From Thermodesulfobacteriota bacterium (GTDB lineage: Bacteria; Desulfobacterota; Anaeroferrophillalia; Anaeroferrophillales; Tharpellaceae), in assembly GCA_024763535.1 (NCBI GenBank), contig JANTFH010000001.1:7337-71336 (forward strand): a stretch of DNA of 64,000 nucleotides. The letters are read 5' to 3'. Numbering within the stretch: the stretch's first letter is position 1; each line of letters opens with the position of its first letter. This document shows positions 7,757 to 27,309 of the stretch, piece after piece. The position numbers and the translations under genes were made by a program. The notes under the pieces were generated by a model, which saw nothing but the letters and a program-made list of their open reading frames with translations, was not told where the DNA came from and ran no database searches.

Positions 7757-7764
7757 AGCACCTA

Positions 7765-8358: not shown

Positions 8359-8359
8359 T

Positions 8360-9505: not shown

Positions 9506-9587
9506 AGGCTTTTATATCAACCAATTTAACAGTTGCGGTAATACAATCGTTAAATTGGCTGCAATAGGGTTTGTTTTCTGTCGAAAA

Positions 9588-12500
9588 TTAACGCAGCGCC
9601 GGCAAACCGTCCAGAAGTACGCCGTCAGTGGTGCCATTGAGTTGAAATCCGACAAGTTTCCGGTCGGATCTGTAGGTTATGTAGGTCGCACGGCTGATAT
9701 CGCTGCTGAAAAGCTTTTCGGCAACCTTTACAACTTTTTCATATCCGTCCAGACTTATAGTTTGCGGCTTTCCCACCATATGGCCATCGTTGTCGTAGGC
9801 TGTCAGAGTGACCCGGCTGGCCTTTAGTGATGTAGCGTTAACCATGGCGATGCCGGTAAATCCATCTTTTTCAAGTTTTGGAAACACCCCTCTGGGTGCG
9901 CTTAAATTGACACTGGAATAGCCGCCCAGTTCCAGACCGTTACTGGTGCCGAACAACTCAAATCCGGTCATCGGCTGACTGGACTTGATTCTGAACCAGG
10001 CCGTTGCTTCCGGGAAGTCCAGAGCGGCAACAGAGCCTATAAATTTATCATGTCCGGTAAGGTCCAGGCTTACATTGGAGGTCAGGATTTTCCCCTCAGT
10101 ATTGAAAGTTGTAAAATTTAAGTGGCTGGTTGCAGTCGCACAGTTATAAGCTACAACCCCGGTCCACCATTCATCTGTAGAGGCAACATGGGGGTAGATG
10201 ATTTCGGTGGCACTGTCATCCTGCAGTAAGATGCCGGAGAGTTGCTTGCCGCTGCCGAAAAGTTCAAGCCCGATGATACCGGCACAATTTCTGATGACGG
10301 CCGACTGGATGCCGGTTTGGGGCTGGCCGGCAAACAGAGACCTGAGGCTCAGCGCCTTGTGTTCACCGGGATTAAGCTCCAGGGTTTGTTTCATACCATT
10401 ATCTGTTTCGATGAAAAGGGTGCGGGCGGAAGCGGTAACATTGACCAGACTCAAACCTGTAAACCAGTTGTCGTCCGAGGCAATGTGCGAGACGAAGATA
10501 TCTTTTTGATTGAGTTCCCTGACAGCCGGAATTGCGACCCGGTAGTTGCCGGCAACGTAAAACTTGGTATAGCCTGCCAGCGTATCGCCGGAGGCGGTGA
10601 AAATGATGTAGCCGATCCGGTCCGGATCGCTGAAGGTCGTGCCGACGGTAATCTCGCGTCGTCCCCGGGGCGGCAGCACAACATCATCTATTTCAGAAAC
10701 CGGGGTTCCGTCATCAGCGTAGGCTTTAAAAGTACCGGTTATGGTGGAATCGGCACTTAAATTGATAACGCAGATCTCAGTTTCCCAGTTATCCACCGTG
10801 GCAATATGGGGGTAGTAGAGGCAGTCGGGTTTACTGACCAGGTATTTACCGATTGCCTGGTTGCCGTAGTTGTCGGTTGCCTCGACCCGCACCAGATAGT
10901 TGCCGGGCCGGGCATAGGTGTGGGAACAGGCACTGTCACTGAAAGGGCCCTGCGGGCTGCTGCCGTCACCGAAATCCCAGCGGTAGTAACTGCCCCAGGA
11001 GTTAATGACCGGAGAATCCAGCAGAGCCTGAAAGCTCTTTTCGGTAACCGTGGAGTTGTTTCTCTCGACAATCGCAGCGGTCGGCTCATCCGCCATCCAG
11101 TTAAGAAAAATGCCGAGCAGTTTTGATCGGGAAGTACGGTGGGCCTGGTCGTTAATACCTTCAAGCCCAAAGCTGGCATAGATGGCGCGGATGGCAGAAG
11201 GCGGCTCGGGAATTCCCAGACTGGGCTGGAAGCGGTTTGCCTGAGCGACAATCCCGTATTGGTTATTGTTCTTATCCGGGTAACAGAGTAAGGCCGGCAA
11301 GTGAAGCCGCCGCAAATCCGCATCTTCGTACGTGCACATCTCATCGATAAAAAACTGGTTTCCGGCCCCGTCTCCACTGTCGCTTAAATCGAGATGGATA
11401 TTCTTAAAAGCTGAAGGCGCATCCGCAAAGGCAACAATATCATGTTCCGGCAGTTTTCCGTCGGTCAGTCCATGCTGCCATACAAGTCCGTTGAGGATGT
11501 TGTCCCAGAAGAATTTTTCACCTTCAAAGGCATCACCTTCAGAGAATATATTAGAAATGTTCTGTCCCATGGCAATTATATGACCGCCGCCATTGGCATA
11601 TTCAGTCAGTCTGTCGGTATACAGATTGTCCATGGGATTCCAGTTGTCTCCGGAGAAATAGACCATGGCCGGATAGCGGGCGAGTTTTGCCGCTTCCGGT
11701 ATGAGGTTGTCGGCCGGTTGGGCATCCACATCCCAGACATCATAACTTTTACCGAGTTTGTCAAGAGCCTCAGTGTAATATTTGCGATAATCTTTTTTCT
11801 CCTGATCGGCGCTGCTGCCGTCGTTGTCGACCAACAGTATCTCTCCCGAAGATGGTCTGACGATCCGGGCCCAGAAAGGGAGGTGGGCGTTGTGAGCTTT
11901 GCCACTGAGTACAATGAATCCCTGGAGGTCGCCACTGTTAACCCTGTCATTGGTCGTGTCAATTGTTAACGTCAGCGTGGTAGAGGTTTTCGGTTTTAAC
12001 GTCAGCTGCGCCGGGGAGAAACTTACACCCTCCATGCTTTTTTCATGGCCGTCCGCGGCCCGTGGGTTAAAAATGGAAACGGTGTAGGTTTCCGGATTGG
12101 GAGATATATTGGTAACGGTTACAGTGAGAGATTTGTTTTTCCCTTTAGCTACCCGGCCGAAACTGACTGAGGGCGGCTGACAGATGATGCCGGGGTCGAT
12201 CACCCGGGTCAGATCGAGGCGGCCGGCACCGATTTCCAGGGGCAGGGCGGGAAGATCATTATCTACCTTTATGCCCTTAAACCTGGAAGTCGTCATGATT
12301 GCCGATTTAATATAACTGTTGGGCCAGTCGGGATGAACCTGGAGAATCAGGGCTGCGGCCCCGGCCACATGCGGGGTCGCCATTGAGGTTCCTGAAGCAA
12401 TTCCAAAGCCTAAATGGCGATTCTCGCCGGCGGCATAGGGGTCATAGCCTTGCGAAAGGATCCGGACTCCGGGGGCAGTAATATCGGGTTTTAAGACTTC

Positions 12501-14255
12501 ACCGACTCCGGGTCCCCGACTACTAAAGTATGCAAGGTAATCGGGAGGGAAATCTGTCGGGTGGGATCGGTAATCCATTTCCAGCCGGGAAGCCGAACCG
12601 TAAGTATCGCACCAATCACGCAGGGCTTCGCCGTCACTGTGCTTGATGAATATTGAAGGGATGCTGATTTCGTCGGCATGGAATGAGGGGCCCATGGTCA
12701 TCAGGTTGTCGCCGCCCTCTGCGTGGTTGTGGTTGTAGATCACCACCAGGACGGCACCGGCTTTTTGGGCCATAAAGACCTTATCACAGAAATCACAGTC
12801 GCCGCGTTCGATCAGTACAGCTTTGTTTGCGAATGGGGTTCCCACCCAGGGGGAACAACCTTCGAAGTTATCAGCTTCAATCCCGGCGGCGGAAATCAGT
12901 TCGTAGGTTGTTACTCCAACCGGCAAGTACGGGCCGAAATCCGCCTCTTGGTAATCAATGTTGGTTAGAGCCTCGTCGGTTGCCCCCGGAGCATTCACTT
13001 TGAAGGGTGGTAAAGTCAGAATCGAAGATTTGCTGGAGGCCGCTACGTTGATGTAGTCGGCCGAAGGATGATCCATGGTTCCCAGGCCGGGACCGGAATT
13101 GCCATTTGCAGCAACAACAAAAATTCCGGATTTGGCGGCATTGATCAGGGTGCGATCGAGCAGGTCATAATAACCCCCTGAGGAATCAGGGGCACCTCCC
13201 ACTGAAAAATTGAGAACATCCGCCCCGTCGGCAACGATATCCTCCAGGGCGGCCAGGCCTTCGGTGGTGTTAACACCTCCCGAACCGCTCTGATGAGGGT
13301 AGAAGACACGGTAGCTCATCAGCCAGGCTGCCGGTGCGACCCCGCTGATTTTTGTTTGGAAGCCGAGATAGGCGGCGGTTACCGGGTTACCGGCGGCAAT
13401 ACCGGCGACGTGAACTCCGTGTGAAATACCGTGTTCACCGGGCCATACATTTGTATCGCCTTCAAGGGGCGGATCATCGGGGTTGAAATAGGCCCGGGAA
13501 ACGATGATTTTACCATTGTTATTGCGGGGGTCGCCCAGGCCCGGAGCCGGGATGTCCGGAGGAAAGTTGAACCCGGTGCCGCTGAACATCGGCGCCTGAT
13601 GATGGATACCGGCGTCCATGATGGCAATTTTAATGCCGCGTCCGGCGTCGGCAGCCGAGTGTATGGCGGGATTGTCCCAGAGAGCCTGAACGTTGATCAG
13701 GTTGCAGCTGGGATAGAGAGTCGGGTAATAAATTTTTTCCGGGTAAACCGCTTTTACTTCCGGCAAATTTCTAAGATTCTGCAAAAGGGTATTTCGATCC
13801 GAGTTCCCGGGATCAAGCGATACTCCATTGAAAAGTAGTTTGTAACGGTTTTCATGTAATCTACCCTGATAATCCAGACGGCGGGAAACCTGGACTCCGG
13901 GGCTTATTGTCTCTAATTTTCGAACAAAACTGTTCTGTTCCTGTTCAAGTCGCCGCAGATATTGTCTGGCGGCCCGATTGCCCGGGGACAGCCGCCGGCC
14001 GCCGGGAGAGCCGTATTTTTTCGGTGATTCGGCAAATCTACAAGCCAATGGTTCATTTTGAAGTTCAACAATCAGCCGACCGGATCTTTTCAGTTCAGGA
14101 TCAAGGGTGCCGGTTGAATTTCTTACTGCAGGGACAGTACCGGCTGCCGCCAGAGCGGTGCCGGCTATAATCATTGGGGCCGCTAGAGAGCTGAGGATGA
14201 GAATGAGAATTGCGGCTGCAGTTTTCCCTGTTCCTGTTATTATCCGGTTCTTCAC
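9588..14255 (-). CDS. Large secreted subtilisin-like serine protease (peptidase S8). Carries a signal peptide, pro-domain, PA-like insert, PKD-like domain and four C-terminal tandem ~100-aa repeats.
   Basis: 1555 aa. N-terminal signal peptide with a hydrophobic stretch. Asp/His/Ser catalytic motifs are IAIMDAGI, HGVHVAGIAAG and GTSMATPHVAGAAALI. A PKD-like segment reads WDFGDGSS...YLVRVEATDNYGN. The repeats carry the motif [YF]PH[IV]A(S/T)xDxW(W/F)TG. Confidence 0.9.
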   Translation of the reverse strand: MKNRIITGTGKTAAAILILILSSLAAPMIIAGTALAAAGTVPAVRNSTGTLDPELKRSGRLIVELQNEPLACRFAESPKKYGSPGGRRLSPGNRAARQYLRRLEQEQNSFVRKLETISPGVQVSRRLDYQGRLHENRYKLLFNGVSLDPGNSDRNTLLQNLRNLPEVKAVYPEKIYYPTLYPSCNLINVQALWDNPAIHSAADAGRGIKIAIMDAGIHHQAPMFSGTGFNFPPDIPAPGLGDPRNNNGKIIVSRAYFNPDDPPLEGDTNVWPGEHGISHGVHVAGIAAGNPVTAAYLGFQTKISGVAPAAWLMSYRVFYPHQSGSGGVNTTEGLAALEDIVADGADVLNFSVGGAPDSSGGYYDLLDRTLINAAKSGIFVVAANGNSGPGLGTMDHPSADYINVAASSKSSILTLPPFKVNAPGATDEALTNIDYQEADFGPYLPVGVTTYELISAAGIEADNFEGCSPWVGTPFANKAVLIERGDCDFCDKVFMAQKAGAVLVVIYNHNHAEGGDNLMTMGPSFHADEISIPSIFIKHSDGEALRDWCDTYGSASRLEMDYRSHPTDFPPDYLAYFSSRGPGVGEVLKPDITAPGVRILSQGYDPYAAGENRHLGFGIASGTSMATPHVAGAAALILQVHPDWPNSYIKSAIMTTSRFKGIKVDNDLPALPLEIGAGRLDLTRVIDPGIICQPPSVSFGRVAKGKNKSLTVTVTNISPNPETYTVSIFNPRAADGHEKSMEGVSFSPAQLTLKPKTSTTLTLTIDTTNDRVNSGDLQGFIVLSGKAHNAHLPFWARIVRPSSGEILLVDNDGSSADQEKKDYRKYYTEALDKLGKSYDVWDVDAQPADNLIPEAAKLARYPAMVYFSGDNWNPMDNLYTDRLTEYANGGGHIIAMGQNISNIFSEGDAFEGEKFFWDNILNGLVWQHGLTDGKLPEHDIVAFADAPSAFKNIHLDLSDSGDGAGNQFFIDEMCTYEDADLRRLHLPALLCYPDKNNNQYGIVAQANRFQPSLGIPEPPSAIRAIYASFGLEGINDQAHRTSRSKLLGIFLNWMADEPTAAIVERNNSTVTEKSFQALLDSPVINSWGSYYRWDFGDGSSPQGPFSDSACSHTYARPGNYLVRVEATDNYGNQAIGKYLVSKPDCLYYPHIATVDNWETEICVINLSADSTITGTFKAYADDGTPVSEIDDVVLPPRGRREITVGTTFSDPDRIGYIIFTASGDTLAGYTKFYVAGNYRVAIPAVRELNQKDIFVSHIASDDNWFTGLSLVNVTASARTLFIETDNGMKQTLELNPGEHKALSLRSLFAGQPQTGIQSAVIRNCAGIIGLELFGSGKQLSGILLQDDSATEIIYPHVASTDEWWTGVVAYNCATATSHLNFTTFNTEGKILTSNVSLDLTGHDKFIGSVAALDFPEATAWFRIKSSQPMTGFELFGTSNGLELGGYSSVNLSAPRGVFPKLEKDGFTGIAMVNATSLKASRVTLTAYDNDGHMVGKPQTISLDGYEKVVKVAEKLFSSDISRATYITYRSDRKLVGFQLNGTTDGVLLDGLPALR

Positions 14256-14724
14256 GATCGCTCTCCAGTTGTAAAAAAAATTAAGCTGAAATCTTCACTT
14301 AAATTTAAGTCAGAGCAAAGGGGGGATCCAACAACTAAAATCCATATCATTTAATACTGGACAAAAGCAATCTTTTAATGTTATATAGCGGTTCAGTTCA
14401 ACGATATAGTTGAATAGAGTAAGGGTTGTGATGGGGATGTTCTCCATAGATCAACCTTTTACTTTGAGGAAGATTAAAATAGCAAAGCGGTTGTTTTCGG
14501 CAACGGAGGCAAGCGCTTTTTTGTTTTTTGGGTCGGTTTTTTCCGATGGTCGATTTAGAACCTTAATCAATCAGGTTCATCTGCAAGATAGATTTACTAC
14601 AACACTATAATTTAAGCCCGTATCCGGAAAGATCGGAACTTTTTAATTTATAAGGTTTGCCGAAAAGCTAAATTTCGCCAGCCTTTTAAGAAAATGTCCG
14701 GCCGGGCTATTGAGAGATTTAGAT

Positions 14725-16017
14725 ATGTCATTTGAAAAATTGGGCCTGGTGCCCAGACTGCTTGAAACCGTAGCCGCACAGGGCTACACCATTCCCACCC
14801 CGATTCAGGCGCAGGCGATTCCCGTGATTCTGGAAGGCCGTGATGTTCTGGGCGGGGCCCAGACGGGAACCGGAAAAACCGCTGCCTTTGCCCTGCCGGT
14901 ATTGCAGAAACTGGATGCGGCCGGTCGTAAAGGTAAACATCCGCGCTGCCTGGTGCTGACGCCGACCCGTGAGCTTGCGGCGCAGGTGGGTGAGTCGATG
15001 GCGGTTTACGGAAAGAAAATGTCGTTGCGTTCGACGATTGTCTTCGGTGGTGTCGGCATTAACCCGCAGATTGATAAATTACGGCGCGGGATTGATATCC
15101 TGGTCGCCACCCCCGGCCGGCTACTGGACCATTGCGGTCAGAAAACCGTTGATCTTTCTCATGTCGAGATTTTGATTCTGGATGAGGCCGACCGGATGCT
15201 GGATATGGGTTTTATCCACGATATCAAGCGGGTGCTCAAATTGCTGCCGCAGAAACGTCAGAATCTGCTCTTTTCCGCGACCTATTCCAATGATATCCGG
15301 GGACTGGCTGACAACCTGTTGCGGGATCCGGTTATGGTTGAAGTCGCACCGCGGAACACCGCGGCCGAAAAGGTTGATCAGGTGGTGTATCCGGTGGCCT
15401 TAAAAGAGAAAAAAGTGCTGCTGGCGAAATTGATTAATGATGGTGACTGGCAGAAAGCTTTGGTTTTCACCCGCACTAAACACGGTGCCAATCGGCTCGC
15501 GACCTATCTGGAAAAAGGTGGTATCGGGGCGGCGGCGATTCACGGCAACAAGAGTCAGACCGCCCGAACCCGGGCTCTGGCTGAGTTTAAGCAGGGCAAA
15601 GTCAAAGTTCTGGTGGCGACCGATATTGCCGCCCGGGGTCTTGACATTGCGGCCCTGCCGCAGGTTGTCAATTTTGATTTGCCGAATGTGGCTGAAGATT
15701 ATGTCCATCGCATCGGCCGGACCGGCCGGGCCGGCAGTTCCGGTATGGCGATTTCACTGGTGAGTGCCGATGAGCAGAAACTCCTGCGGCCGATCGAGAG
15801 ACTGTTGGGGCGGGATATTCTCGTCGAAAATATCGACGGTTTTGCCCAGAATGAGGCCGATAAGGACGAAGAGACTTTCGTTAATTTCAACCGCCGCGGC
15901 AAAGGGCCGGGCCGGGGGCGTTACTCTAAACCGCGTCAATCCGGTGGCAGACCCGGCGGTAATTCCCGAAATTCCAGCCACTCGCGCGCCAGATCCGGCG
16001 GGGCCGGTAATCGTTAG
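14725..16017 (+). CDS. rhlE: ATP-dependent DEAD-box RNA helicase (RhlE-like) with an Arg/Gly-rich C-terminal tail
   Basis: Q-motif FEKLGL...GYTIPTPIQ, Walker [13 protein letters not shown] box ([13 protein letters not shown]), [13 protein letters not shown], and a C-terminal RGKGPGRGR...GGRPGGNSR tail. Start set at ATG 14725 (MSFEKLGL). Confidence 0.9.
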
Positions 16018-17151: not shown

Positions 17152-20100
17152 TCAACTCTTTTCCATGATAAAACATGGCGTCTGGCTGGATGAGGGGGGA
17201 CTTAACGGACACCTGGAGGCGATGCAGGTCGGGTTTATGCCCATCTGTTTACAGTTAAGTTCAGTATCGGCCTTGAGGCCTGTCGGCAGCATGGTCTGGG
17301 AGAGCTCCGCCGCCTTTTTCAAGGCCAGCCAGGAATCACGCTGGCAGCAGCGGGCGGCATCGAGTTCGGCAATATCAGCCAGACACATCTGGGTGGCCGT
17401 TTGAATCTTTTGGCGGGCGGAAGCCGCCATCGGGGTTGATTTAAGAATCAGGCCGAAAGCAATACCTACGCCCAAAGCGGCACCGCAGGCACCAAAAAAA
17501 CCGCAGAATCCGCCGGGTATCTGCGAGCCCCGGGAGATTCCGTTTTTTACGGTTTCACTGCTGATTCCACCACCAATATTTTTATAAGTTGCGAGAATAA
17601 TTCCCGGTACCAGAGCATGGTGCTCGGGGCCGTGCACCGGAATGCGCGGATGATTGCGTATCTGCCGCAACAGGGCAATCATGTCGGTTTCAGTGGTTGT
17701 CGTACACAGGTGCTCAATGACCTGCAGGGCATCCCGGGCATGACACTCATCACAGACGAAATGCCCATTTTCACAGAGAGCGTTGGTTTTTAAGCTCTGA
17801 TGACAAAAAGCGCAGCTTTTTTCCACCTCTGTCTGTTGATAGACCAGCGGGGCACCGCAAACCATACAGTCAACGCTTTTCCTGACATTACCATCATTTT
17901 TATCCTGAGTATCTACGGCCTTTGCTTTTGCCTCCGGCGGTGAAGCACAGCAGGAGTCGCCGAGCTCAATATTGCTGACAAAACCATGACCGTCCAAGAG
18001 AAAAATTTCTTCACCGCAGCCCTTTAAGCGGCTGTCCGGCAGCGTGTAAGTTGTGCCCGGCGTCAGCACTTGCCGGTCGGCCGTCAGCACCGCGGCAAAG
18101 GGGCCCCGGTAGATCATTTTGATCATCTTGCCGGGCCCCGGTTTCCAGGCGGCAAAGGTCAGGGAATAGAAGGGGTGGCCAGCTACCGTACGGTAGGGAT
18201 ATCTTTTAATGATTCTCGGATTTATAAAACCTGATTCACTCAGCAGAGCCATAAGGTTTTTCTGAGTCAAGGCTCCGGCAATACATTCGCCCCGCAGAAT
18301 TTCATCACTGCGGATGGCGGGATCGGGTTCGTCCTCGCAGACCACATCCGCGACTACGAGTCGGCCCCCGGGCCGTAATACACGCAGGATTTCAGCAAAA
18401 GTCCGCCTTTTGTTGGTGGATAAATTGAGAACGCAGTTGGAGATGATTACATCAGCTCCGTGATCGTCCAGCGGCAGATCTTCAAGCAGGCCTTTTTTGA
18501 ACCTCAAATTGTCATAACCGAGGTTCTTGCGGATGGAGATAGCTCCCTGTCGGGCCAGTTCCAGCATGGGATCAAGCATGTCGATGCCGGTTACCCGGCC
18601 GGAGTCGCCGACCAGGCGGGCCCCGATAAAACACTCCACTCCGCTGCCGCTGCCGAGATCAACCAGGCTTTCTCCGGTCTGCAACTCGGCGTCCAGAATC
18701 GGGCTTCCGCAGCCGTAACTGCGTACCCGGGAGGCGGTTGGAATATGGCTCAGCAGTTCAGCGGGATAATTCACCGGATTAAGGATATCGAGGTTGGGCT
18801 TTAAGGCGGCGCTGCCGTAAAATTTTCTGATAACGGTTCGGCTGTCATTCCGACTTAAAGAGAGCAGGCAGTTATTGTGAACCAGAGTCTCCCGGCCATG
18901 GGCGCCGCAGCTCTCCAGGATATCCCCCATTTTCAGGCGCAGTCCCGGCAGCTTACGCTCGGGCCGGGCCGGTAGATTACTGGTAATTTGCCATAAGGCG
19001 ATATCTTCGTAGAGGGGCCAGTAGGGGTCGTGGCCGCTGAATTCTCCGGAATGGATATAGCTGTGGTCGGGGTCACCGCCGCCGAGGATGAAGCGCAGCG
19101 GGTGGCTGATGGCCATGGCGTTGGCCCGGCGCAGGTGCTTAAACACCGGGTCGGAACGCCAGGTGGTGCCGAGGTCGGAGTTAATTTCCGCCCCCAGTCC
19201 TTTCATGCCGATCAGGGCCGGAGAGGGATAAAGTTTATGATCCGGTCCGATGGCAATCGATTCCCAACCGCTGGAGCCGGCCCAGTGAATGGTTCCCGGG
19301 GGCGCGAACACCTGGGTTTGCATGGTCTCAAGGTTATCGATACCGACTCCCAGCTGAGCCCCTTTTGCGGCCGCCTCCTGCAGTTTAGTGAAAATCTTCT
19401 GCGGCAGAACGAAGGCCTCCGCCGAGCCCCGGCCCCGGATAAAATACCACATAAAGTGGACCGTTGCGGCGCCAACCTCAGAAGCCAGTTCGATAATCTC
19501 CGGCATTTGCTGCACATTGCTCTCGGTGACACACATGGAAAGGGTGAAAGGCATGTTCTGCTGCCGCAGGAGATGAAATTCATGTCCCAATTTTTTGAAT
19601 GATCCTGCTCCCCGTAAATGGTCGTGTTCCTTTTCCAGGCCATCGATGCTGATCTGCAGATGTAAGTTATCTTTCGGCCAGGACTTAAGCTCCTTTGTAA
19701 AATTATGCCAGAGCATGCCGTTGGTCAGCACTGCCACGTGCCGCTCCGGGTCAGCCAGCAGATGGTCGATGATTGCGGCAAACTGCGGGTGCACCAGGGG
19801 CTCACCGCCGGTCAGGGCGAAGACGCGGCAGCCTAAGTTTGCGGCCTGATCTGTCAGTGAGATAATCTCCGCCAGTGACAGACTCTCCTTTTCTCCGGGG
19901 GAGCAGGCAAAGAGACAATGTCTGCAGGCCTGATTACAGTCATTGGTGATGTGCAGCCAGCACTCTTTAAGCTCCCGGGTTGACAGGGTTTCGGGCCGTC
20001 CGCTCAGCTTCGTCTCTGCGTAGGCCGGCAGGCGCTGTAAAAACAGTTGCTGTTGTAAATCACCAGGATACGCACCTCCGGCAGCCAGGTCGCTGAGCAG

Positions 20101-20244
20101 CTGGTCTCCGGCACGGTTGGGGATAAACCAGTCCGGATGGTCGCGGTTGACATAGACGGGGATGGTATTAAACTCAATCCGGCTCCATTGATGCGGGTCG
20201 TAAACTAACTTACAGTTTTCAGACGGGGGGCTGTTTTTCAGCAT
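17152..20244 (-). CDS. Three-module fusion protein: ArsS-like radical SAM domain + ArsM-like (arsenite methyltransferase-type) class I SAM methyltransferase + Cys-rich C-terminal module. Start probably at the second ATG (20244), which has an AAGGA SD; the ORF track's 20295 ATG has none.
   Basis: CX3CX2C radical-SAM motif in ITNDCNQACRHC, followed by a GGEP-like segment (ALTGGEPLV). MTase motifs YGCGSPILDAELQTGESLVDLGSGSGVECF and VIISNCVLNLS with RVLRPGGRLVVADVV, which line up with the ArsM family. C-terminal ~290 aa with CMVCG...CAFC...CENGHFVCDEC and GGFCGFFGACGAALG. Confidence 0.8.
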   Translation of the reverse strand: MLKNSPPSENCKLVYDPHQWSRIEFNTIPVYVNRDHPDWFIPNRAGDQLLSDLAAGGAYPGDLQQQLFLQRLPAYAETKLSGRPETLSTRELKECWLHITNDCNQACRHCLFACSPGEKESLSLAEIISLTDQAANLGCRVFALTGGEPLVHPQFAAIIDHLLADPERHVAVLTNGMLWHNFTKELKSWPKDNLHLQISIDGLEKEHDHLRGAGSFKKLGHEFHLLRQQNMPFTLSMCVTESNVQQMPEIIELASEVGAATVHFMWYFIRGRGSAEAFVLPQKIFTKLQEAAAKGAQLGVGIDNLETMQTQVFAPPGTIHWAGSSGWESIAIGPDHKLYPSPALIGMKGLGAEINSDLGTTWRSDPVFKHLRRANAMAISHPLRFILGGGDPDHSYIHSGEFSGHDPYWPLYEDIALWQITSNLPARPERKLPGLRLKMGDILESCGAHGRETLVHNNCLLSLSRNDSRTVIRKFYGSAALKPNLDILNPVNYPAELLSHIPTASRVRSYGCGSPILDAELQTGESLVDLGSGSGVECFIGARLVGDSGRVTGIDMLDPMLELARQGAISIRKNLGYDNLRFKKGLLEDLPLDDHGADVIISNCVLNLSTNKRRTFAEILRVLRPGGRLVVADVVCEDEPDPAIRSDEILRGECIAGALTQKNLMALLSESGFINPRIIKRYPYRTVAGHPFYSLTFAAWKPGPGKMIKMIYRGPFAAVLTADRQVLTPGTTYTLPDSRLKGCGEEIFLLDGHGFVSNIELGDSCCASPPEAKAKAVDTQDKNDGNVRKSVDCMVCGAPLVYQQTEVEKSCAFCHQSLKTNALCENGHFVCDECHARDALQVIEHLCTTTTETDMIALLRQIRNHPRIPVHGPEHHALVPGIILATYKNIGGGISSETVKNGISRGSQIPGGFCGFFGACGAALGVGIAFGLILKSTPMAASARQKIQTATQMCLADIAELDAARCCQRDSWLALKKAAELSQTMLPTGLKADTELNCKQMGINPTCIASRCPLSPPSSSQTPCFIMEKS

Positions 20245-20366
20245 CGGGAATGTCCTTTTTCGGTGCAACCGATCTTCGCAGGGCGAAATTTGCATAAATA
20301 TGATTGTTATGGTAGAGTATTGCCTGTCTTGTTATGATGTTTTTAGGTTGGATGTCAAGAGGTATT

Positions 20367-21080
20367 ATGAAGCGGGCTTCAAGCGGGAAAATTATTCTCC
20401 TGATCGCGATCATTCTGCTGCTGGTTGTTTTCAGGGCATTTGAGCTCAATCAGTACCTGACTCTTGACTATCTTAAAGCTTCCCGATCTCATTTCATCAG
20501 CCTCTATACTCTTCATCCTTTTGCCGTGATTGCCGTTTATACGGCCGGATATATTCTGGTTACGGCCCTCTCTTTACCCGGCGCCACGGTTTTAACCCTG
20601 GCCGGAGGGGCCCTGTTCGGTCTGGTCAAGGGTACCGTAATCATCTCTTTTGCCAGCACTATCGGAGCAACCCTGGCCTGTCTGGTCTCCCGCTATCTGC
20701 TTCGTGACTGGGTTCAGGACCGTTTTCGCGATACCCTGGCCGCGATTAATCAGGGGATGGCCCGGGAGGGCGGTTTCTACCTTTTCAGCCTGCGTCTGGT
20801 GCCGATTTTTCCCTTTTTCATGATCAATCTGGTGATGGGGCTTTCCCGGATGCGGCTGACCCAATTTTACTGGATATCCCAGCTCGGTATGCTGCCCGGA
20901 ACCCTGGTTTATGTCAATGCCGGCCGGGAACTGGGGAAGCTTGATAGTCTTTCCGGAATTCTTTCACCGGGATTGATCGGCTCTTTTGTGATTTTGGGAA
21001 TTTTCCCTTTCTTGGTTAAAAAACTTGTCGCCTGCTGGCGGCGGAGACGCTCTTTAGTGCCGCCTCCCGAGCACCATTAA
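20367..21080 (+). CDS. DedA/TVP38/TMEM64-family integral membrane protein
   Basis: Multi-pass membrane protein with the conserved DedA core (GxxxV..ALSLPGATVLTLAGGALFG). Start placed at ATG 20367 after an AGAGG SD. Confidence 0.75.
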   Translation: MKRASSGKIILLIAIILLLVVFRAFELNQYLTLDYLKASRSHFISLYTLHPFAVIAVYTAGYILVTALSLPGATVLTLAGGALFGLVKGTVIISFASTIGATLACLVSRYLLRDWVQDRFRDTLAAINQGMAREGGFYLFSLRLVPIFPFFMINLVMGLSRMRLTQFYWISQLGMLPGTLVYVNAGRELGKLDSLSGILSPGLIGSFVILGIFPFLVKKLVACWRRRRSLVPPPEHH

Positions 21081-21113
21081 CTTTAACGCATCTGTAATTT
21101 AAGGAGATTCGTA

Positions 21114-22571
21114 ATGGCAAACTATGATTATGATATGGGTATCATCGGCGGCGGGGCGGCCGGGCTTACGATTGCCTCGGGAGCGGCCCAGCTGGGGGCC
21201 AAAACCCTGTTGATAGAAAAGGAGGACAGGCTTGGCGGTGACTGCCTCCATTATGGCTGTGTTCCCAGTAAAACCCTGATTAAGAGTGCCCGGGTCTATC
21301 AGCAGATGAAAAATGCTCATGTTTTCGGCCTGCCGGACATAACTCCCGGCCCGGTTGACTTTAGCCGGGTGCGAGAAAGGATAGAGTCGGTTATCTCCGG
21401 GATCCAGAAACACGATTCCGAGGATCGTTTCTGCCGGTTGGGTGTCAAGGTTGAGTTCGGCCAGCCGGAATTTGTGGATGAATATCAGGTGCGTTTACCG
21501 GGTCAGACGGTGTCGGCGGCAAAATGGGTGATTGCCAGCGGCTCTTCTCCGGCGCCGCCGCCTTATGCCGGGCTGGAGAAAATCAACTATCTTACCAATA
21601 AGGAGTTGTTTTCACTTGAAAGCCTGCCGTCCTCCATGATTATTCTGGGAGCCGGCCCCATCGCCATGGAGATGGCCCAGGCCTTCAACAGCCTGGGCAC
21701 CCGGGTTGAGGTTATTCAGAGAAGCGGTCAGATTCTCAGCAAGGAAGATCAGGATATGGCCGATATGGTTATGCATAACCTGCAGCAGGAGGGGGTGATA
21801 ATACACCTGCACGCCTCGGTCATGGCAATTGAAGATGCCGGTAACCGTCGACCGCGGATAACGATCAGCACAAAAGGGGATGAAACACCGGTGCAGCTGG
21901 AAGCCGAGACTCTGCTGGTGGCTATGGGCCGTCGGGCCAATCTGGAAGGTTTGGGTCTGGAAAATATCGGGGTCGATTTCAGCCCTAAAGGTCTCACGGT
22001 TGATAAACGGCTGCGGACTCGGCATAAACATATTTACGCCGCCGGTGATGTCACCGGTACCTACCAGTTTACCCATGCGGCCGGATATGAAGGCGGGATT
22101 GTTTTAAGCAATGCGATTTTTCATCTGCCGAGAAAGGTTGATTACAGCACCATGCCCTGGTGTACCTATACTCACCCCGAGCTGGCCAGTATCGGTATGA
22201 ATGTCAAGGCAGCCCGGGCTGCCGGAATAGAGTATTCCGAGTGGAGCGAAAATTTTCAAAATAATGACCGGAGTCTGGCAGAAGGCAACCAGAGCGGCCT
22301 GATCAAGATGCTGCTTGATGCCGGCGGTAAGCCTTTGGGGGTGCAGATTGCCGGCCCCCAGGCGGGCGAATTGCTCAATGAGTGGGTGGCGGTAATGAAC
22401 GGCGGGGTGAAATTGACGAGCCTGGCGTCGGCGATTCATCCCTATCCGACGCTGGGAGAGATCAACAAGCGCGTGGCGGGAAAACCACTGGCGCAAAAAC
22501 TGTTCTCGCCGAAAATGAAAAAAGGGTTGAAATTTTTCTTCGGGTTTAAGGGCCGGGCCTGCGATGTTTAG
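21114..22571 (+). CDS. Class I pyridine nucleotide-disulfide oxidoreductase (dihydrolipoamide-dehydrogenase / mercuric-reductase-like FAD flavoprotein)
   Basis: FAD GxGxxG (GIIGGGAAG), redox-active disulfide GGDCLHYGCVPSK, NAD(P) GxGxxA motif (IILGAGPIAMEMA), C-terminal dimerisation HPYPTLGE. Confidence 0.85.
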   Translation: MANYDYDMGIIGGGAAGLTIASGAAQLGAKTLLIEKEDRLGGDCLHYGCVPSKTLIKSARVYQQMKNAHVFGLPDITPGPVDFSRVRERIESVISGIQKHDSEDRFCRLGVKVEFGQPEFVDEYQVRLPGQTVSAAKWVIASGSSPAPPPYAGLEKINYLTNKELFSLESLPSSMIILGAGPIAMEMAQAFNSLGTRVEVIQRSGQILSKEDQDMADMVMHNLQQEGVIIHLHASVMAIEDAGNRRPRITISTKGDETPVQLEAETLLVAMGRRANLEGLGLENIGVDFSPKGLTVDKRLRTRHKHIYAAGDVTGTYQFTHAAGYEGGIVLSNAIFHLPRKVDYSTMPWCTYTHPELASIGMNVKAARAAGIEYSEWSENFQNNDRSLAEGNQSGLIKMLLDAGGKPLGVQIAGPQAGELLNEWVAVMNGGVKLTSLASAIHPYPTLGEINKRVAGKPLAQKLFSPKMKKGLKFFFGFKGRACDV

Positions 22572-23283
22572 AAAACTATGTCTTGTTATTGTCCTGCTTA
22601 TTCTCATCTCGGCTTATGCCGCCGCCTCCGGTAGCGGCCGTAATTTTTTTCTGAATGAGCAGTTTGCATCGTTGGCTGACTGGAAGCCCTTCTATTTTCC
22701 TGAAATTAAAGAGCACAGCCGCTATGCTGTCATCCGGGAAAATGGTGCAAGCTGGTTGCAGACTTCAAGCTTAGCTTCGGCCTCCGCCATCGTTTATCAG
22801 CAAAGTTTTGATGTCTACCGCTTTTCGCACCTTAAATGGCGCTGGCGGGTTGACAATATCTATAAAAAGGGTAATGCTGAGAAAAAGTCCGGAGATGATT
22901 ATCCGATCAGGATTTATGTTATGTTTGAGTATAATCCTCAGTCGGCCGGTTTTTTCGAGAAGATAAAATACAACACCGCCCGGCTCTTATACGGCTCCTA
23001 TCCGCCCCACTCCTCGCTGAACTATATCTGGGCCAATCGTAAACAGCCGCAAAGAATAATGGACAATCCCTATACTGACCGAACCCGGATGATCATTATG
23101 GAAGCGGGGCGTAAAAATCTTGGAAAATGGCGGGAATATGAGGTTGATATCCTCAATGATTACCGTCAGGCTTTCGGTGAAGAACCGCCCGCCCGGGCCC
23201 GGATTGCGATCATGAACGATTCGGATAATACCGGCGAGGCCGGCAAATCCCAGGTTGATTATATTCAGGTTTATGGAGAATAG
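22564..23283 (+). CDS. Secreted DUF3047-like protein
   Basis: Signal peptide MFRKLCLVIVLLILISAYAAASG. ~230-aa domain containing WRWRVDNIYKKGNAEKKSGDDYPIRIYVMF. It partners with the two transferases downstream, the arrangement I know for DUF3047. Confidence 0.55.
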   Translation: MFRKLCLVIVLLILISAYAAASGSGRNFFLNEQFASLADWKPFYFPEIKEHSRYAVIRENGASWLQTSSLASASAIVYQQSFDVYRFSHLKWRWRVDNIYKKGNAEKKSGDDYPIRIYVMFEYNPQSAGFFEKIKYNTARLLYGSYPPHSSLNYIWANRKQPQRIMDNPYTDRTRMIIMEAGRKNLGKWREYEVDILNDYRQAFGEEPPARARIAIMNDSDNTGEAGKSQVDYIQVYGE

Positions 23284-23287
23284 AACG

Positions 23288-23932
23288 ATGCCCGTCGCCC
23301 GGGCCCTTATCATTATGACCCGCTACCCGGAGCCCGGCCGGGTCAAGACCCGTCTGATTCCGGCCCTGGGTGCAAACGGTGCCGCCCGTCTGCATCGGCA
23401 GATGGTTGAATATACGCTGGCAACCGTTAAGAATTTAAGCTCCGTTACCGCTGCCGGGATCTTTATCTTTTTTCAGGGCGGCAGCAGAGAGCTGATGGCT
23501 GAATGGCTGGGAGACGGGGTCGAATATCTGCCCCAGGTTGAGGGTGATCTTGGGGATAAAATGAGGGCGGCCCTGCAAACGGTTTTTAACCGGGGCTTTG
23601 AAGAGGTGATTATGATCGGCAGCGACTGTCCGGCAATCGATGCTGAAATTTTAGCGCAGGCTTTTTCCGGATTATCCCGGGCCGGGATGGTTATCGGCCC
23701 GGCCGCCGACGGCGGTTATTATCTGCTGGGCTTAAAACAGGTTTACGAGCCGCTCTTTGAAAAGATCGACTGGGGTAGCGGGGTCGTGCTGAGACAGACC
23801 CTTTCTGCCGCCCGCAAAGTTGGTCTCAGGGTGCAGAGCCTTTCCGAACTGAGAGATATTGACCGGCCTGAAGATCTTAAGCAGCTGCAAGCTCTGGCCG
23901 CTTTCTCCTCCTGGAGTGATATTTCGGCATGA
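23288..23932 (+). CDS. DUF2064 / TIGR04282-like nucleotide-diphospho-sugar transferase (the 'rSAM/selenodomain-associated transferase 1' type)
   Basis: N-terminus MPVARALIIMTRYPEPGRVKTRLIPALGANGAARLHRQM matches the DUF2064 signature (PxPGxVKTRL). Start placed at ATG 23288 with a GGAGA SD. Confidence 0.7.
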   Translation: MPVARALIIMTRYPEPGRVKTRLIPALGANGAARLHRQMVEYTLATVKNLSSVTAAGIFIFFQGGSRELMAEWLGDGVEYLPQVEGDLGDKMRAALQTVFNRGFEEVIMIGSDCPAIDAEILAQAFSGLSRAGMVIGPAADGGYYLLGLKQVYEPLFEKIDWGSGVVLRQTLSAARKVGLRVQSLSELRDIDRPEDLKQLQALAAFSSWSDISA

Positions 23933-24639
23933 GGCGTAGATCGCAAGAGCTTATCTCAATTATTATTCCGACCCTTAATGAAGAGTCATCCCTTCCGGCC
24001 GCTGTCAGTCGGGCGCGGTCGGGCGCAGAGATTGAAATAGTTGTGGCCGACGGCGGCAGTTCAGACCGGACCTTAGAACTGGCTGAGGAGCTGCGGGTAA
24101 AGGTTGTCTCCTCAAAGCCCGGTCGCGCGGTGCAGATGAATGCCGGGGCCCGGGAATCACGGGGTGATATCCTGCTCTTTCTGCATGCGGACACCCTGCT
24201 GCCGAGGGGTTACGATAAATGTGTCCGCCGGATATCCGGGGATCGGTCGGTTGCGATTGGCGCCTTTCGGCTGGGTATTAGGGACCCGGGAATAGCTTTA
24301 CGGATTATCGAGCTCGGGGCTAATCTCAGGTCAAAATACGGCCATCTTCCTTATGGTGATCAGGCGCTGTTTATGAGCCGGCGGCGGTTTGATGAATTAG
24401 GCGGATTTCCTGAAATCTCACTGATGGAAGATTTTGCTCTGGTTCAGCAGCTGAAGCGGCGGGGCCGGGTTGTTCTGGCTCCCCTTGCCGTATACACCTC
24501 GGCCCGGCGGTGGCGTGATCTGGGAATCTTAAGAACTACCGTCTTGAATCAACTGATTGTCGGAGCCTATATGATGGGGGTATCGCCCGTCCGGCTTGCG
24601 GCCTGGTACCGGCGGAGGAAAAACCGAGATGCAGAATGA
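23929..24639 (+). CDS. Family 2 glycosyltransferase (TIGR04283-like, the 'rSAM/selenodomain-associated transferase 2' type)
   Basis: ISIIIPTLNEESSLP...IEIVVADGGSSDRT GT-A fold N-terminus with a DxD-type motif. ATGA overlap with the upstream gene. Confidence 0.75.
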   Translation: MRRRSQELISIIIPTLNEESSLPAAVSRARSGAEIEIVVADGGSSDRTLELAEELRVKVVSSKPGRAVQMNAGARESRGDILLFLHADTLLPRGYDKCVRRISGDRSVAIGAFRLGIRDPGIALRIIELGANLRSKYGHLPYGDQALFMSRRRFDELGGFPEISLMEDFALVQQLKRRGRVVLAPLAVYTSARRWRDLGILRTTVLNQLIVGAYMMGVSPVRLAAWYRRRKNRDAE

Positions 24640-25468
24640 AGCAAAAATACGCCTGATCTCTTTTGTCGTGATATTCCTGGCGGTGGCTCTGGCGGAAATT
24701 ATCTTTCCCCGGCGCCGGTTGACGGATGCCAAAGGCCGGCGCTGGCGGCATAATCTGGGATTGATTTTTCTCGACAATTTGGTGGTCTGGCTGCTGCTCT
24801 CCGGTGCGACGATTGCCGTAGCGGTGGCGGCTGAACGGGCTCAGTGGGGACTGTTTAACCTTTATCATGTGCCTGAATTTCCGGCGATAATTCTCGGTGT
24901 TCTGGCTCTGGACTTAATTATCTACCTGCAGCATCTGATGTTTCATGCGGTGCCGCGATTATGGCGTCTGCATATGGTTCATCACACGGATTTGGATATT
25001 GACGTCTCCACCGGGCTGCGCTTTCATCCGCTGGAAATAATAATTTCCGTCTGGATCAAGCTGGCTGCAATTGTGGCTTTGGGAGTGCCGGCTGCCGGAG
25101 TGCTGCTTTTTGAGGTAGTGCTCAACGGCACCGCGCTGTTTAATCACGGAAATCTTCGGCTGCCTGAAGATAGCGATCGTTTTCTCAGGAAATTTCTCGT
25201 AACCCCGGATATGCACCGGGTGCATCATTCGGTGATTATCCGGGAGACCAACTCCAATTTCGGTTTTAATCTGTCCTGGTGGGATCGACTGTTCGGTACC
25301 TACCGGCCGCAGCCGGCCGCCGGTCATGAAGGGATGAGTATCGGCCTTGCGCCCTATCGGGAGGCCCGGGAGTTAACTTTTCTAACGCTTTTGCGGCTGC
25401 CCTTTTCCGGGGATCCCGGGAGATACTCCCTGGATCATAGCGGTCGCGAACCGTCGCTTAAGAAATGA
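24629..25468 (+). CDS. Fatty acid hydroxylase / sterol desaturase superfamily integral membrane protein
   Basis: His-box motifs HMVHHTDLDIDVSTGLRFHPLE, HRVHH and NFGFNLSWWDRLFGT are typical of the FA_hydroxylase family. Start placed at ATG 24629 (MQNEAKIRL). Confidence 0.8.
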   Translation: MQNEAKIRLISFVVIFLAVALAEIIFPRRRLTDAKGRRWRHNLGLIFLDNLVVWLLLSGATIAVAVAAERAQWGLFNLYHVPEFPAIILGVLALDLIIYLQHLMFHAVPRLWRLHMVHHTDLDIDVSTGLRFHPLEIIISVWIKLAAIVALGVPAAGVLLFEVVLNGTALFNHGNLRLPEDSDRFLRKFLVTPDMHRVHHSVIIRETNSNFGFNLSWWDRLFGTYRPQPAAGHEGMSIGLAPYREARELTFLTLLRLPFSGDPGRYSLDHSGREPSLKK

Positions 25469-25524: not shown

Positions 25525-27309
25525 CTACGCTTTATCCTTTTTACGTTTGCTCTTGCTACGGATCGGATGGGGTCTGGAGGGTCGGTTCGGGCGTTTTGAG
25601 CGGTCCGGGCGGGGCGTCATTTTTTCTTTGCTGTCAGCAATTTTGGCTCGGACTTTACGGCCGTTGATCATCAGGCTGGAGAAGGTGTTGATAATCTCTT
25701 TGGCGTAGCGGGTATCGGCCTCAATCAGGCTGCAGTTGGTTTGGATTTCGATGCGGCCGACATGGATGCGCGGGCCGCCGACACTGGCGTCGTTAATCTC
25801 GCCGATCAGCCGGCCCGGGTTGATGCCGTCCCGTTTGCCGACATTGACGTGGAAGCGGGTGAAGCGTTCCCGGTCACTGCCGCGGTCATTGGTATCACGG
25901 TTTTTATAGGTTTTGGATCTGCCGTCCCGCCGTTCGTAATCCCGGCTGCTGCCGGATTCCCGCCGGCCTTTGCCTACGGAGTCATTCTCATTCAGATCCG
26001 GGGCGTTGCGATAATAGCTTAAGAGTTGAGCAAATTCGGAGATGACAAAACGTTTGACCAGTTCTTCCCGTTCCAGCGGAGCGAGACTCTCCATAATCGC
26101 CGGCAGAAACGGTTCAATCTGGCGGCTGTCGATGGCGGTCATTTTCAGTTCATCCAGATAGTGCAGCATCCGTTGCCGGCAAATCTCCTGGCCGGTCGGG
26201 ATGCGGCCCGGTTCAAATTTCCTCTTGAGCCGTCTCTCAATCTGTTTAATCTTGTATTTTTCGCGCAGGTGGGCAATTGCAATCGAGATGCCCTCCTTGC
26301 CGGCCCGGCCGGTGCGGCCGCTGCGATGGGTGTAGGCGGCGACATCATCGGGCAGGTTGTAATTTATGACATGAGTTAAGTTTTTAACGTCAAGGCCGCG
26401 GGCGGCAACGTCGGTGGCCACCAGCAGTTTAATATTACGGCGCCGGAATTTCTGCATGACATGATCACGCTGAGCCTGAGCCAGTTCGCCATGCAGAGCA
26501 TCGGCATTGTAGCCGTCGTCAATCAGTTTGGCGGCGATATCGCGGGTCTCCTGGCGGGTACGGCAGAAGATAATGGCATAGATATCGGGGTTGCTGTCGG
26601 CAATGCGTTTCAGGGTCGGGTAGCGGTTTTTGGCGGCCACCATATAGTAAGTATGGCGGACATTTTCAATGCCCTGGTTGCGTTCGCCGATGGTAACTTC
26701 AATCGGATCCTTCATGTAGCTGTTGGCGATGGCGGTAACTTCCCGGGGCATCGTGGCCGAGAAAAGGACGGTTTTTTTACTCTCCGGGGTCGCTGCCAGA
26801 ATCTCGTTGAGATCGTCCTGAAAACCCATCTGCAGCATTTCGTCAGCTTCATCAAGAATGACGGCCCGGATGTTTTTGATATTAACATCGCCCTGCTGGA
26901 TAAAAGCTAAAAGCCTCCCCGGAGTGGCAACAATTATCTGGGCTCCGGCTTTAAGCTGCCGGCTTTGGCCGATGATACTGGCACCGCCGTAGACGGCGAC
27001 AATTCTGATTTTAGGGAGAAATCGGGAGAAGGCGGCAAGATCCTTGTGGACCTGGACGCAGAGTTCCCGGGTCGGACAGAGGATTAAGGCTTGAGTCTGC
27101 ATGTTGCTTTGATCCAGCATCTGGATCAGAGGCAGTCCGAAGGCCGCGGTTTTGCCGGTGCCGGTCTGGGAGAGTGCTACCAGATCGTCTTCAAGTTTGT
27201 TCAGGCGCGGGATTACCTCAGCCTGGACCGGAGTCGGGGTTTTGAAGCCGAGTTTGTTGATGCCTTCGAGAAGTTCTGAACTTAAGCCTAAATCGGCAAA
27301 CGTGGTCAT
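25525..27309 (-). CDS. deaD: Cold-shock DEAD-box RNA helicase DeaD/CsdA-like, with a DbpA-type RNA-binding domain and a basic C-terminal tail
   Basis: 594 aa: FADLGL...TPTPVQ, SQTGTGKT, LDEADEMLQMGF, SAT, HRSGRTGRAG, then a C-terminal DbpA-like domain and a KRPNRPSRPHPIRSKSKRKK tail. Confidence 0.9.
   Translation of the reverse strand: MTTFADLGLSSELLEGINKLGFKTPTPVQAEVIPRLNKLEDDLVALSQTGTGKTAAFGLPLIQMLDQSNMQTQALILCPTRELCVQVHKDLAAFSRFLPKIRIVAVYGGASIIGQSRQLKAGAQIIVATPGRLLAFIQQGDVNIKNIRAVILDEADEMLQMGFQDDLNEILAATPESKKTVLFSATMPREVTAIANSYMKDPIEVTIGERNQGIENVRHTYYMVAAKNRYPTLKRIADSNPDIYAIIFCRTRQETRDIAAKLIDDGYNADALHGELAQAQRDHVMQKFRRRNIKLLVATDVAARGLDVKNLTHVINYNLPDDVAAYTHRSGRTGRAGKEGISIAIAHLREKYKIKQIERRLKRKFEPGRIPTGQEICRQRMLHYLDELKMTAIDSRQIEPFLPAIMESLAPLEREELVKRFVISEFAQLLSYYRNAPDLNENDSVGKGRRESGSSRDYERRDGRSKTYKNRDTNDRGSDRERFTRFHVNVGKRDGINPGRLIGEINDASVGGPRIHVGRIEIQTNCSLIEADTRYAKEIINTFSSLMINGRKVRAKIADSKEKMTPRPDRSKRPNRPSRPHPIRSKSKRKKDKA

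Follow-up and report, generated by a model that had tools for sequence, protein, structure and literature searches.

We analysed a 64,000-nucleotide (nt) stretch of contig JANTFH010000001.1 (GCA_024763535.1; positions 7,337-71,336 of the forward strand), hereafter the window, and describe a seven-gene locus at positions 17152-25468 that comprises the gene of a large fusion protein and a divergent six-gene operon. The fusion protein combines a radical S-adenosylmethionine (SAM) part, a methyltransferase domain related to the arsenite methyltransferase ArsM and a Cys/His-rich DUF5714 domain. It occupies the slot that the radical SAM enzyme ArsS, together with ArsM where present, holds in other loci of this kind, which is the pattern expected for a non-orthologous replacement. 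We suggest with moderate confidence that this tri-functional enzyme replaces ArsS and ArsM functionally, without ArsS orthology, in a seven-gene unit of an anaerobe of the Desulfobacterota type. The non-orthologous enzyme in the ArsS/ArsM slot is the new element of the locus, and its family is undescribed in the literature searched, in which DUF5714 goes unmentioned, DUF3047 is named in a single paper and a fusion between a radical SAM enzyme and ArsM is not described. An original prediction, made from the sequence of the window, had taken the large protein for an ArsS-ArsM fusion; its ArsM-like part stands, its ArsS part does not, and DUF5714 had been missed as a third domain.

Domain architecture of the fusion protein

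All seven open reading frames (ORFs) of the original prediction were found in place. The fusion gene and its domains are listed below, and residue numbers refer to the form of 1030 amino acids (aa) unless stated otherwise.

17152-20244, minus strand: fusion gene, 1030 aa from M18, encoding RRE-like, radical SAM, Cys-less SPASM-like, ArsM-like methyltransferase and DUF5714 parts
19966-20244, minus strand: N-terminal RRE-like subdomain (aa 1-93), three beta-strands followed by helices
19345-19965, minus strand: radical SAM core (aa 94-300) with the CX3CX2C (C103/C107/C110) and GGE motifs; Pfam PF04055, 70 bits
18850-19344, minus strand: SPASM-like C-terminal extension (aa 301-465) without auxiliary-cluster cysteines, with invariant C446/H449/H456/C459 at its end
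17935-18849, minus strand: ArsM-like SAM methyltransferase (aa 466-770) including the ArsM C-terminal domain; C512, C604 and C654 invariant
17155-17934, minus strand: DUF5714 Cys/His-rich domain (aa 771-1030); PF18978, 196.2 bits

An upstream ATG at 20295 would extend the protein to 1047 aa; the identical 1030-aa protein in the database begins at Met18, and the alignment of the fusion homologues starts just past this residue. The likely start is thus M18 (20244), matching the database copy.

The predicted radical SAM motif was confirmed as CNQACRHC, accompanied by the GGE motif, and both CNQACRHC and LTGGEP are invariant across the 120 fusion homologues over which residue conservation was counted. 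The core is preceded by a small beta-beta-beta-alpha-alpha subdomain (aa ~20-93). When the radical SAM region was compared with NCBIfam and the 25 best families were considered, all scored 55-85 bits, led by Rv1681, ScmF, MftC, AhbD, NirJ and StsB, and the best sequence match among solved structures in the PDB is SkfB. The core and the SPASM-type C-terminal extension characteristic of the SPASM/twitch fold are both present, and the cysteines for one or two auxiliary [4Fe-4S] clusters are not. No conserved Cys occurs between aa 239 and 445, and the positions of the SPASM cluster ligands read LYPSPAL and GGGD.DH in the fusion family. This part is therefore a SPASM-type scaffold that carries the SAM cluster only.

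Orthology of the radical SAM domain to ArsS is ruled out by four results. TIGR04167, the ArsS family (curated cutoff 300 bits), does not figure in the 25 top-scoring NCBIfam families, the lowest of which scores 55 bits, and the control, an annotated arsS product from a Burkholderia glumae plasmid, reaches 450 bits. DUF3641 (PF12345; ..CDFN.. and HC..CTAG.GSSC/U), present in the control, has no match in the fusion. The BLASTP alignment of the fusion with B. glumae ArsS is confined to 70 residues surrounding the cluster and GGE motifs (31% identity), and hhalign of a profile of ten ArsS proteins against the full-length fusion profile recovers only the generic radical SAM core (146 columns, 15-163, 23% identity). 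Furthermore, hhalign detected no homology between DUF3641 of ArsS and either DUF5714 or the SPASM-like region. The original prediction had itself named a best match to SPASM-type families as evidence against its ArsS label, and such families are indeed the best matches. What the protein shares with ArsS is the pair of CX3CX2C and GGE motifs and the TIGR04282/TIGR04283 neighbourhood. For ArsL, no model appeared among the 25 best NCBIfam matches.

The methyltransferase had been predicted to be collinear with ArsM, and this reading is confirmed. Its top NCBIfam matches are all ArsM models (PRK11873, 202 bits; NF040538, 164 bits; NF038099, 109 bits), the NF040538 match entering the ArsM C-terminal domain and ending at aa ~784 of the 1047-aa form, and the five best PDB matches are all ArsM structures (108-125 bits, with 5evj/4fr0 at 122-125). 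YGCGS, SNCV.NLS and GEC..GAL align with Cys72/174/224 of CmArsM (phmmer against 5evj/4kw7), so that C512, C604 and C654 are the predicted As(III)-binding cysteines. All three are present in 120 of the 120 homologues; the original prediction had regarded loss of the ArsM cysteines as counter-evidence, and these three are retained. The equivalent of CmArsM C44, judged by alignment to canonical partner ArsMs (CCP.EY) and not by structure, is Asn492 in the window protein; it is Cys in 78/120 family members and Asn or Asp in the window clade.

DUF5714 carries ~16 Cys/His residues that are invariant over the 120 homologues. They form two CxxC pairs, a C..H..CxxCH motif, C914/C920, a vicinal RCC.R motif (C966-C967) and C998/C1007/C1012. 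The domain corresponds to the N-terminal half of the model for the metal-binding double selenoprotein MbdU (133 bits), and no solved homologue was found for it.

Gene neighbourhood and the ArsS slot

The remaining elements of the seven-gene unit are as follows.

20245-20366: divergent intergenic segment, shared promoter region (conserved in the related locus L087)
20334-21080, plus strand, likely start 20367: DedA/TVP38 (VTT domain) membrane protein; PF09335, 84.7 bits
21114-22571, plus strand: class I flavin adenine dinucleotide (FAD) pyridine-nucleotide disulfide oxidoreductase with CLHYGC, PRK06370.1-3 type; NF004991, 451 bits
22564-23283, plus strand: DUF3047 protein with a signal-peptide-like N-terminus; PF11249, 239.1 bits
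23288-23932, plus strand: TIGR04282/DUF2064 protein, CofC/FbiD-like nucleotidyltransferase fold; 224.7 bits (curated cutoff 134)
23929-24639, plus strand: TIGR04283 family 2 glycosyltransferase (GT2); 257.5 bits (curated cutoff 182)
24629-25468, plus strand, alternative TTG start 24596: membrane FA_hydroxylase with di-iron His-box; PF04116, 94.6 bits

The divergent arrangement, the families of the six genes and the overlapping or abutting stops and starts all agree with the original prediction. The DedA database copy has 237 aa and its MKR.. start is kept in L087 and in another related locus, L083; DedA thus probably begins at 20367, and the divergent spacer therefore measures ~120 bp rather than the ~70 bp given earlier. 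There are 8 nt of overlap between the reductase stop and the DUF3047 start, and 4 nt between the TIGR04282 and TIGR04283 genes. Going by the database copies, the probable starts of TIGR04282 and the hydroxylase are 23288 and 24629, respectively, and the hydroxylase orthologues have 279 aa in both L083 and L087. The spacer is conserved between the window and L087. A single weak sigma-70-like match lies at 20275-20304, in scans for promoters and terminators that did not usefully exceed background, and no operator-like inverted repeat was found in the spacer.

VTT/DedA, DUF3047, FA_hydroxylase and DUF5714 all exceed the Pfam gathering thresholds. The hydroxylase scores 84.9 bits to the OlsE model NF052566 against a curated cutoff of 475, and is classed by these scores as a generic FA_hydroxylase family member only. 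The reductase scores 347 bits to the MerA model TIGR02053 against a cutoff of 454, and its C-terminus, ..KGRACDV, holds a single Cys and not the vicinal Cys pair of MerA. The TIGR04282 family profile matches PDB 3cgx and the FbiD/CofC guanylyltransferases, and for DUF3047 no solved relative was found.

The same genes accompany canonical ArsS. Among 80 metagenome loci centred on TIGR04282, many of them short, 60 carry TIGR04283, 16 ArsS, 10 DedA, 9 the FAD reductase, 4 an ArsM-like gene, 4 the FA hydroxylase, 1 DUF3047 and 0 the fusion. Representative gene orders are given below, the last one from a fusion locus.

L102, L159, L142: ArsS-DedA-FAD reductase-TIGR04282-TIGR04283
L106: ArsM ... ArsS-DedA-FAD reductase-TIGR04282-TIGR04283
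L141: ArsM-ArsS-TIGR04282-TIGR04283
L157: ArsM-TIGR04282-TIGR04283-ArsS-DedA-FAD reductase
L136: FA hydroxylase-DedA-TIGR04282-TIGR04283-ArsS
L053: DedA-FAD reductase-fusion-TIGR04282-TIGR04283

The six-gene operon is therefore an ordinary ArsS accessory module, and the fusion stands where ArsS, with or without ArsM, stands elsewhere. No locus combined the two radical SAM types (0/160 loci; 0/80 in each of the two samples), and the 64-kb window holds no second radical SAM or ArsS gene. The arsenosugar-type assignment of the original prediction thus finds support at the level of the system, through the ArsS-like gene position and the Cys triad, and fails at the level of the enzyme family. The original prediction had further seen DedA, the disulfide reductase and the FA hydroxylase as the signature of a special variant with a lipid-linked product. 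The same set lies beside canonical ArsS in metagenomes and on B. glumae plasmids, and therefore does not mark such a variant; the lipid-linked product itself found no direct support.

On the B. glumae plasmid NZ_CP100267 (L088, 46350-65039), arsS is accompanied by genes for MTA phosphorylase, TIGR04283, TIGR04282 and a TIGR03169 oxidoreductase, as well as by a single-gene DedA-FAD reductase fusion. The reductase half of this fusion scores 519 bits to NF004991, placing it in the same subfamily as the window reductase. No recognisable ArsM is present in this locus. The canonical arsS locus, found on 49 Burkholderia plasmids, also holds DUF6969, thioredoxin, CcdA and an ECF sigma/anti-sigma pair, and two adjacent proteins labelled 'hypothetical' (339 and 318 aa) in the B. 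glumae arsS locus match no family. One metagenomic ArsS (L115:6677-7579) has an in-frame stop (TGA) inside the C-terminal ..CTAG.G..C.G.. motif, which is consistent with a selenocysteine (Sec) variant of TIGR04167, listed as a selenoprotein family.

The fusion is itself widespread. Over 868 homologues, each about 1000 aa long, have its architecture at 50-80% identity under source names that read merely 'DUF5714 domain-containing' or 'methyltransferase domain-containing'. Relatives are encoded in 278 GTDB species genomes, for the most part from anaerobes and mostly of Desulfobacterota, with others in Planctomycetota, Victivallales, Chlorobium, Anaerolineales, Myxococcota and further groups. The closest relatives of the window proteins come from Desulfarculaceae and 'Deltaproteobacteria' metagenome-assembled genomes (MAGs), and cultured carriers include Desulfacinum hydrothermale DSM 13146, Malonomonas rubra DSM 5091, Desulfuromonas sp. 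AOP6 and Syntrophotalea acetylenivorans.

For the neighbourhood of these homologues, 80 loci from 80 species were taken with 10 kb on either side of the fusion gene. Any module gene is present in 26 of them: TIGR04282 in 16, DedA in 10, TIGR04283 (sometimes fused to TIGR04282) in 8, DUF3047 in 5, the FAD reductase in 4 and the FA hydroxylase in 1. Canonical ArsS is present in 0/80. The module genes lie mostly <500 bp from the fusion on the same strand, and this adjacency extends over five or more phyla (Desulfobacterota, Myxococcota, Victivallales, Anaerolineales and Bacteroidota). In the related MAG L087 all seven genes are again arranged as in the window, between different flanking genes. 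Unbiased clustering of the neighbouring ORFs in the 80 loci yielded no further family common across phyla. Desulfuromonadales neighbours (aldolase, GAPDH, DnaJ-like and others) were considered as partners and rejected as lineage-specific housekeeping synteny.

In Desulfuromusa and its relatives a single ~440-aa protein combines TIGR04282 with TIGR04283 and is encoded next to DUF3047 and the fusion gene, as at L033:14611-15939 (minus strand) and in six other loci (cluster 10). DEAD-box helicase genes flank the window locus (14710-16017, plus strand; 25525-27309, minus strand) and such a gene also adjoins the fusion in L064 and L066, probably by coincidence.

Homologues of TIGR04282 and also of TIGR04283 occur in cyanobacterial loci of the hormogonium-polysaccharide (hps) type (L082:3854-13026, L084:938-12654, L085:10001-14525). 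In Fischerella and other cyanobacteria the TIGR04282 protein, at 50% identity, lies amid pseudopilins, several GT2 genes and HpsJ. This placement means that the RefSeq 'arsenosugar' names of TIGR04282 and TIGR04283 are no independent evidence, and the name 'arsenosugar biosynthesis glycosyltransferase', also borne by genes of these polysaccharide loci, looks over-specific and calls for caution. The original prediction had used both families as arsenosugar markers; their association with ArsS holds, and the cyanobacterial copies make the names weak evidence.

Several other features of the window were recorded. A 1555-aa secreted subtilase with PA, Fn3-like and PKD domains and a long C-terminal region without assigned function is encoded at 9588-14255 (minus strand), adjoined by a class 3 lipase gene (8687-9505, minus strand). 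At 49518-52678 (minus strand) lies a low-GC island (0.43 against ~0.51) with a 277-aa Dam-like DNA methyltransferase ORF overlapped by one of 776 aa; judged only from composition and N-terminal sequence, the two are probably a restriction-modification pair acquired by horizontal transfer. The segment 54406-60292 (minus strand) encodes an RND efflux transporter (AcrB/CzcA-type, 914 bits), a membrane fusion protein of the CusB/HlyD type and, upstream, a 409-aa ORF; it looks like a heavy-metal-type tripartite efflux system, the sole other metal-related feature in the window.

Proposed function and competing explanations

We infer arsenic as the substrate, carbon-arsenic (C-As) bond formation and each downstream step as follows. 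A thiophilic trivalent metalloid, most likely As(III), would be bound by C512/C604/C654 and/or by DUF5714 cysteines such as C966-C967. The methyltransferase domain would transfer one or more methyl groups from SAM to the metalloid, and the radical SAM domain, with its single [4Fe-4S] cluster, would form a C-As bond via a SAM-derived radical. A SPASM-like lid without auxiliary clusters fits a redox-neutral reaction that needs no extra electron transfer, and ArsS adenosylates dimethylarsenite (DMAs(III)) in vitro in a redox-neutral manner (PMC13598754). ArsL adds a 3-amino-3-carboxypropyl radical to As(III) bound at its C-terminal RCCLKC (PMC13598754; PMC8552651), and BgArsM, a three-Cys ArsM without the first Cys, methylates an organoarsenical (PMC8552651). 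ArsS and ArsM take part in arsenosugar biosynthesis in Synechocystis (Xue et al. 2019 as cited in PMC8552651). With the first ArsM Cys missing from the window clade as well, an order in which the radical SAM step comes first and methylation second is as plausible as the order of ArsM then ArsS that the original prediction assumed.

In the following steps, the TIGR04282 protein may activate a phosphorylated sugar-type intermediate by nucleotidyl transfer and the TIGR04283 glycosyltransferase may transfer it; the fusion of the two in one protein supports their acting together. DedA and the FAD disulfide reductase, the periplasmic DUF3047 protein and the membrane hydroxylase could handle membrane, redox or export steps. 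The MTA phosphorylase of the Burkholderia locus would fit removal of adenine from an adenosyl-arsenical, and no gene for this enzyme is present in the window.

To our knowledge, ArsS (arsenosugars) and ArsL (arsinothricin) are the only radical SAM families known to make C-As bonds, and we know of no assigned step downstream of ArsS. A broader and distinctly more tentative proposal is that the radical SAM-ArsM-DUF5714 protein represents a third such family, which would have evolved independently, by loss of the auxiliary clusters in an ancestor of the SPASM type. One polypeptide would then carry out capture (DUF5714), methylation and radical alkylation, and its product, an undescribed organoarsenical of anoxic environments, would be passed to the TIGR04282/TIGR04283 module in the window clade.

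Several observations weigh against the functional replacement of ArsS and ArsM. The fold of the radical SAM part is nearest to peptide-modifying SPASM enzymes. The methyltransferase domain stays under all curated ArsM cutoffs (PRK11873, 263 bits; NF040538, 500; NF038099, 400); the stand-alone ArsM partners of canonical ArsS are also below them (164-184, 312-334 and 99-134 bits, respectively). Of the fusion loci that extend 5 kb or more in both directions, 5/35 have any module gene and 2/35 have TIGR04282. At L083 the fusion is a pseudogene remnant (6030-7050, minus strand) with an internal deletion of ~740 codons, its frame running through the radical SAM part to ~aa 265 and then directly into the last ~35 codons. 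Beside this remnant the six-gene operon of DedA, reductase, DUF3047, TIGR04282, TIGR04283 and hydroxylase is intact at 7101-12203, so that loss of the fusion need not entail loss of the operon. No radical SAM or ArsM gene lies near the TIGR04282 homologues of the cyanobacterial hps loci, and no ars gene (arsR, arsC, acr3/arsB or other) is present in the 64-kb window.

Some of these points would be expected if the neighbours shared no pathway, that is, if the fusion were a self-sufficient metalloid methylator or detoxifier and the operon an independent module for envelope glycoconjugate or lipid modification and redox functions, with an incidental adjacency. The ~70-85% of fusion loci that have no module gene within 10 kb, the operon kept beside the destroyed fusion gene in L083 and the occurrence of TIGR04282/TIGR04283 in hps loci without radical SAM or ArsM genes all suit this explanation. 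We nevertheless regard it as unlikely. The adjacency recurs in at least five phyla on the same strand with intergenic gaps often of 3-150 bp, whereas chance would bring a single-copy pair within 10 kb in ~0.5% of loci (4-Mb genome). No other neighbour is common across phyla, and in L053 the fusion sits inside the module.

It is also improbable, in our estimate, that the system is the same but acts on selenium or a different soft metalloid (Te, Sb), so that both cluster types would make organo-selenium or organo-metalloid sugars or lipids. The window without ars genes would agree with such a substrate, and so would the sharing of DUF5714 between the fusion and the double selenoprotein MbdU. The ArsS locus of B. 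glumae, with its TIGR03169 'N-terminal-to-SelD' oxidoreductase, thioredoxin and CcdA and no recognisable ArsM, points the same way, as do the Sec variants of ArsS (the in-frame TGA of L115 and the listing of TIGR04167 as a selenoprotein family); Sec in an enzyme is, however, uninformative about its substrate. Arsenic is favoured by the in vitro action of ArsS on DMAs(III) (PMC13598754) and by the conserved Cys triad, which corresponds to the As(III) site of solved ArsMs.

The presence of ScmF, MftC and StsB among the best NCBIfam matches raises the question whether the fusion, by its RRE-like, radical SAM and SPASM-like part, modifies a peptide or protein, either in a pathway for ribosomally synthesized and post-translationally modified peptides or in protein maturation, with the methyltransferase and DUF5714 acting on the same macromolecule. 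We consider this very unlikely. No conserved small ORF that could encode a precursor peptide flanks the fusion gene in the 80 loci, and the seemingly 'conserved' small ORFs near it were rejected as antisense artefacts within conserved gene ends. The SPASM auxiliary-cluster cysteines are all missing, the methyltransferase is specifically ArsM-like with an As-binding triad, and the neighbours are small-molecule and glycosyl enzymes. Finally, an orthologous ArsS-ArsM fusion that channels DMAs(III) to 5'-deoxyadenosylation and yields a novel lipid-linked arsenosugar is hardly tenable: radical SAM and ArsM-like domains do lie in one polypeptide beside TIGR04282, TIGR04283 and DUF3047, but the TIGR04167, DUF3641, BLASTP and hhalign results already refute the orthology, and DedA, the reductase and the hydroxylase accompany canonical ArsS as well.

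Comparison with known systems

Organoarsenic cycling in anoxic sediments is poorly understood, and the fusion offers a candidate third C-As family in the sulfate and metal reducers, Planctomycetota and Victivallales of such sediments. DedA with the FAD reductase and TIGR04282 with TIGR04283, sometimes joined by DUF3047 and the FA hydroxylase, may be viewed as one module that serves either type of radical SAM enzyme, which gives the search for the missing steps of arsenosugar synthesis a narrower field.

The closest counterpart is the ArsS and ArsM system, in which a radical SAM enzyme is likewise paired with an ArsM-type methyltransferase. Its loci have the same accessory genes, among which the fusion holds the operon position of ArsS. 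The radical SAM part of the fusion belongs to another branch than ArsS, with a SPASM-type fold, an RRE-like N-terminal domain and no DUF3641; the methyltransferase is supplied in cis and DUF5714 is added. As a class I SAM methyltransferase, the central domain has the ArsMs as its nearest relatives.

In the ArsL and ArsM system of Burkholderia gladioli (arsQML; PMC8552651, PMC13598754), a C-As-forming radical SAM enzyme works with a three-Cys ArsM. The vicinal Cys motif RCCLKC of ArsL has a parallel in the invariant RCC.R of DUF5714, and the domain order of the fusion, radical SAM then methyltransferase, mirrors the reaction order of ArsL then ArsM. The architectures differ, the cluster motif of ArsL lying at residues 194-201 of 428 aa, and the fusion locus has neither an arsQ permease nor an ars operon context.

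Compared with the SPASM/twitch enzymes CteB, anSME, SuiB, SkfB and PqqE, the fusion lacks the auxiliary [4Fe-4S] cysteines and a precursor peptide gene, and it is joined to ArsM-like and DUF5714 domains. The ArsM fusion (seleno)proteins of anaerobes (ArsM_AhpD_UU NF041537, ArsM_DUF2284_UU NF041536 and MTase_UXPK_star NF047649) and MbdU (NF045648) also contain a Cys/Sec-rich putative redox or metal-binding domain. Relative to these families the fusion is far under the cutoffs, has no Sec and bears an additional N-terminal radical SAM part. For the operon, the bifunctional TVP38/TMEM64-FAD-dependent oxidoreductase of B. glumae plasmids (WP_012732781) is the single-chain counterpart, of which the DedA and reductase genes of the window are the split form.

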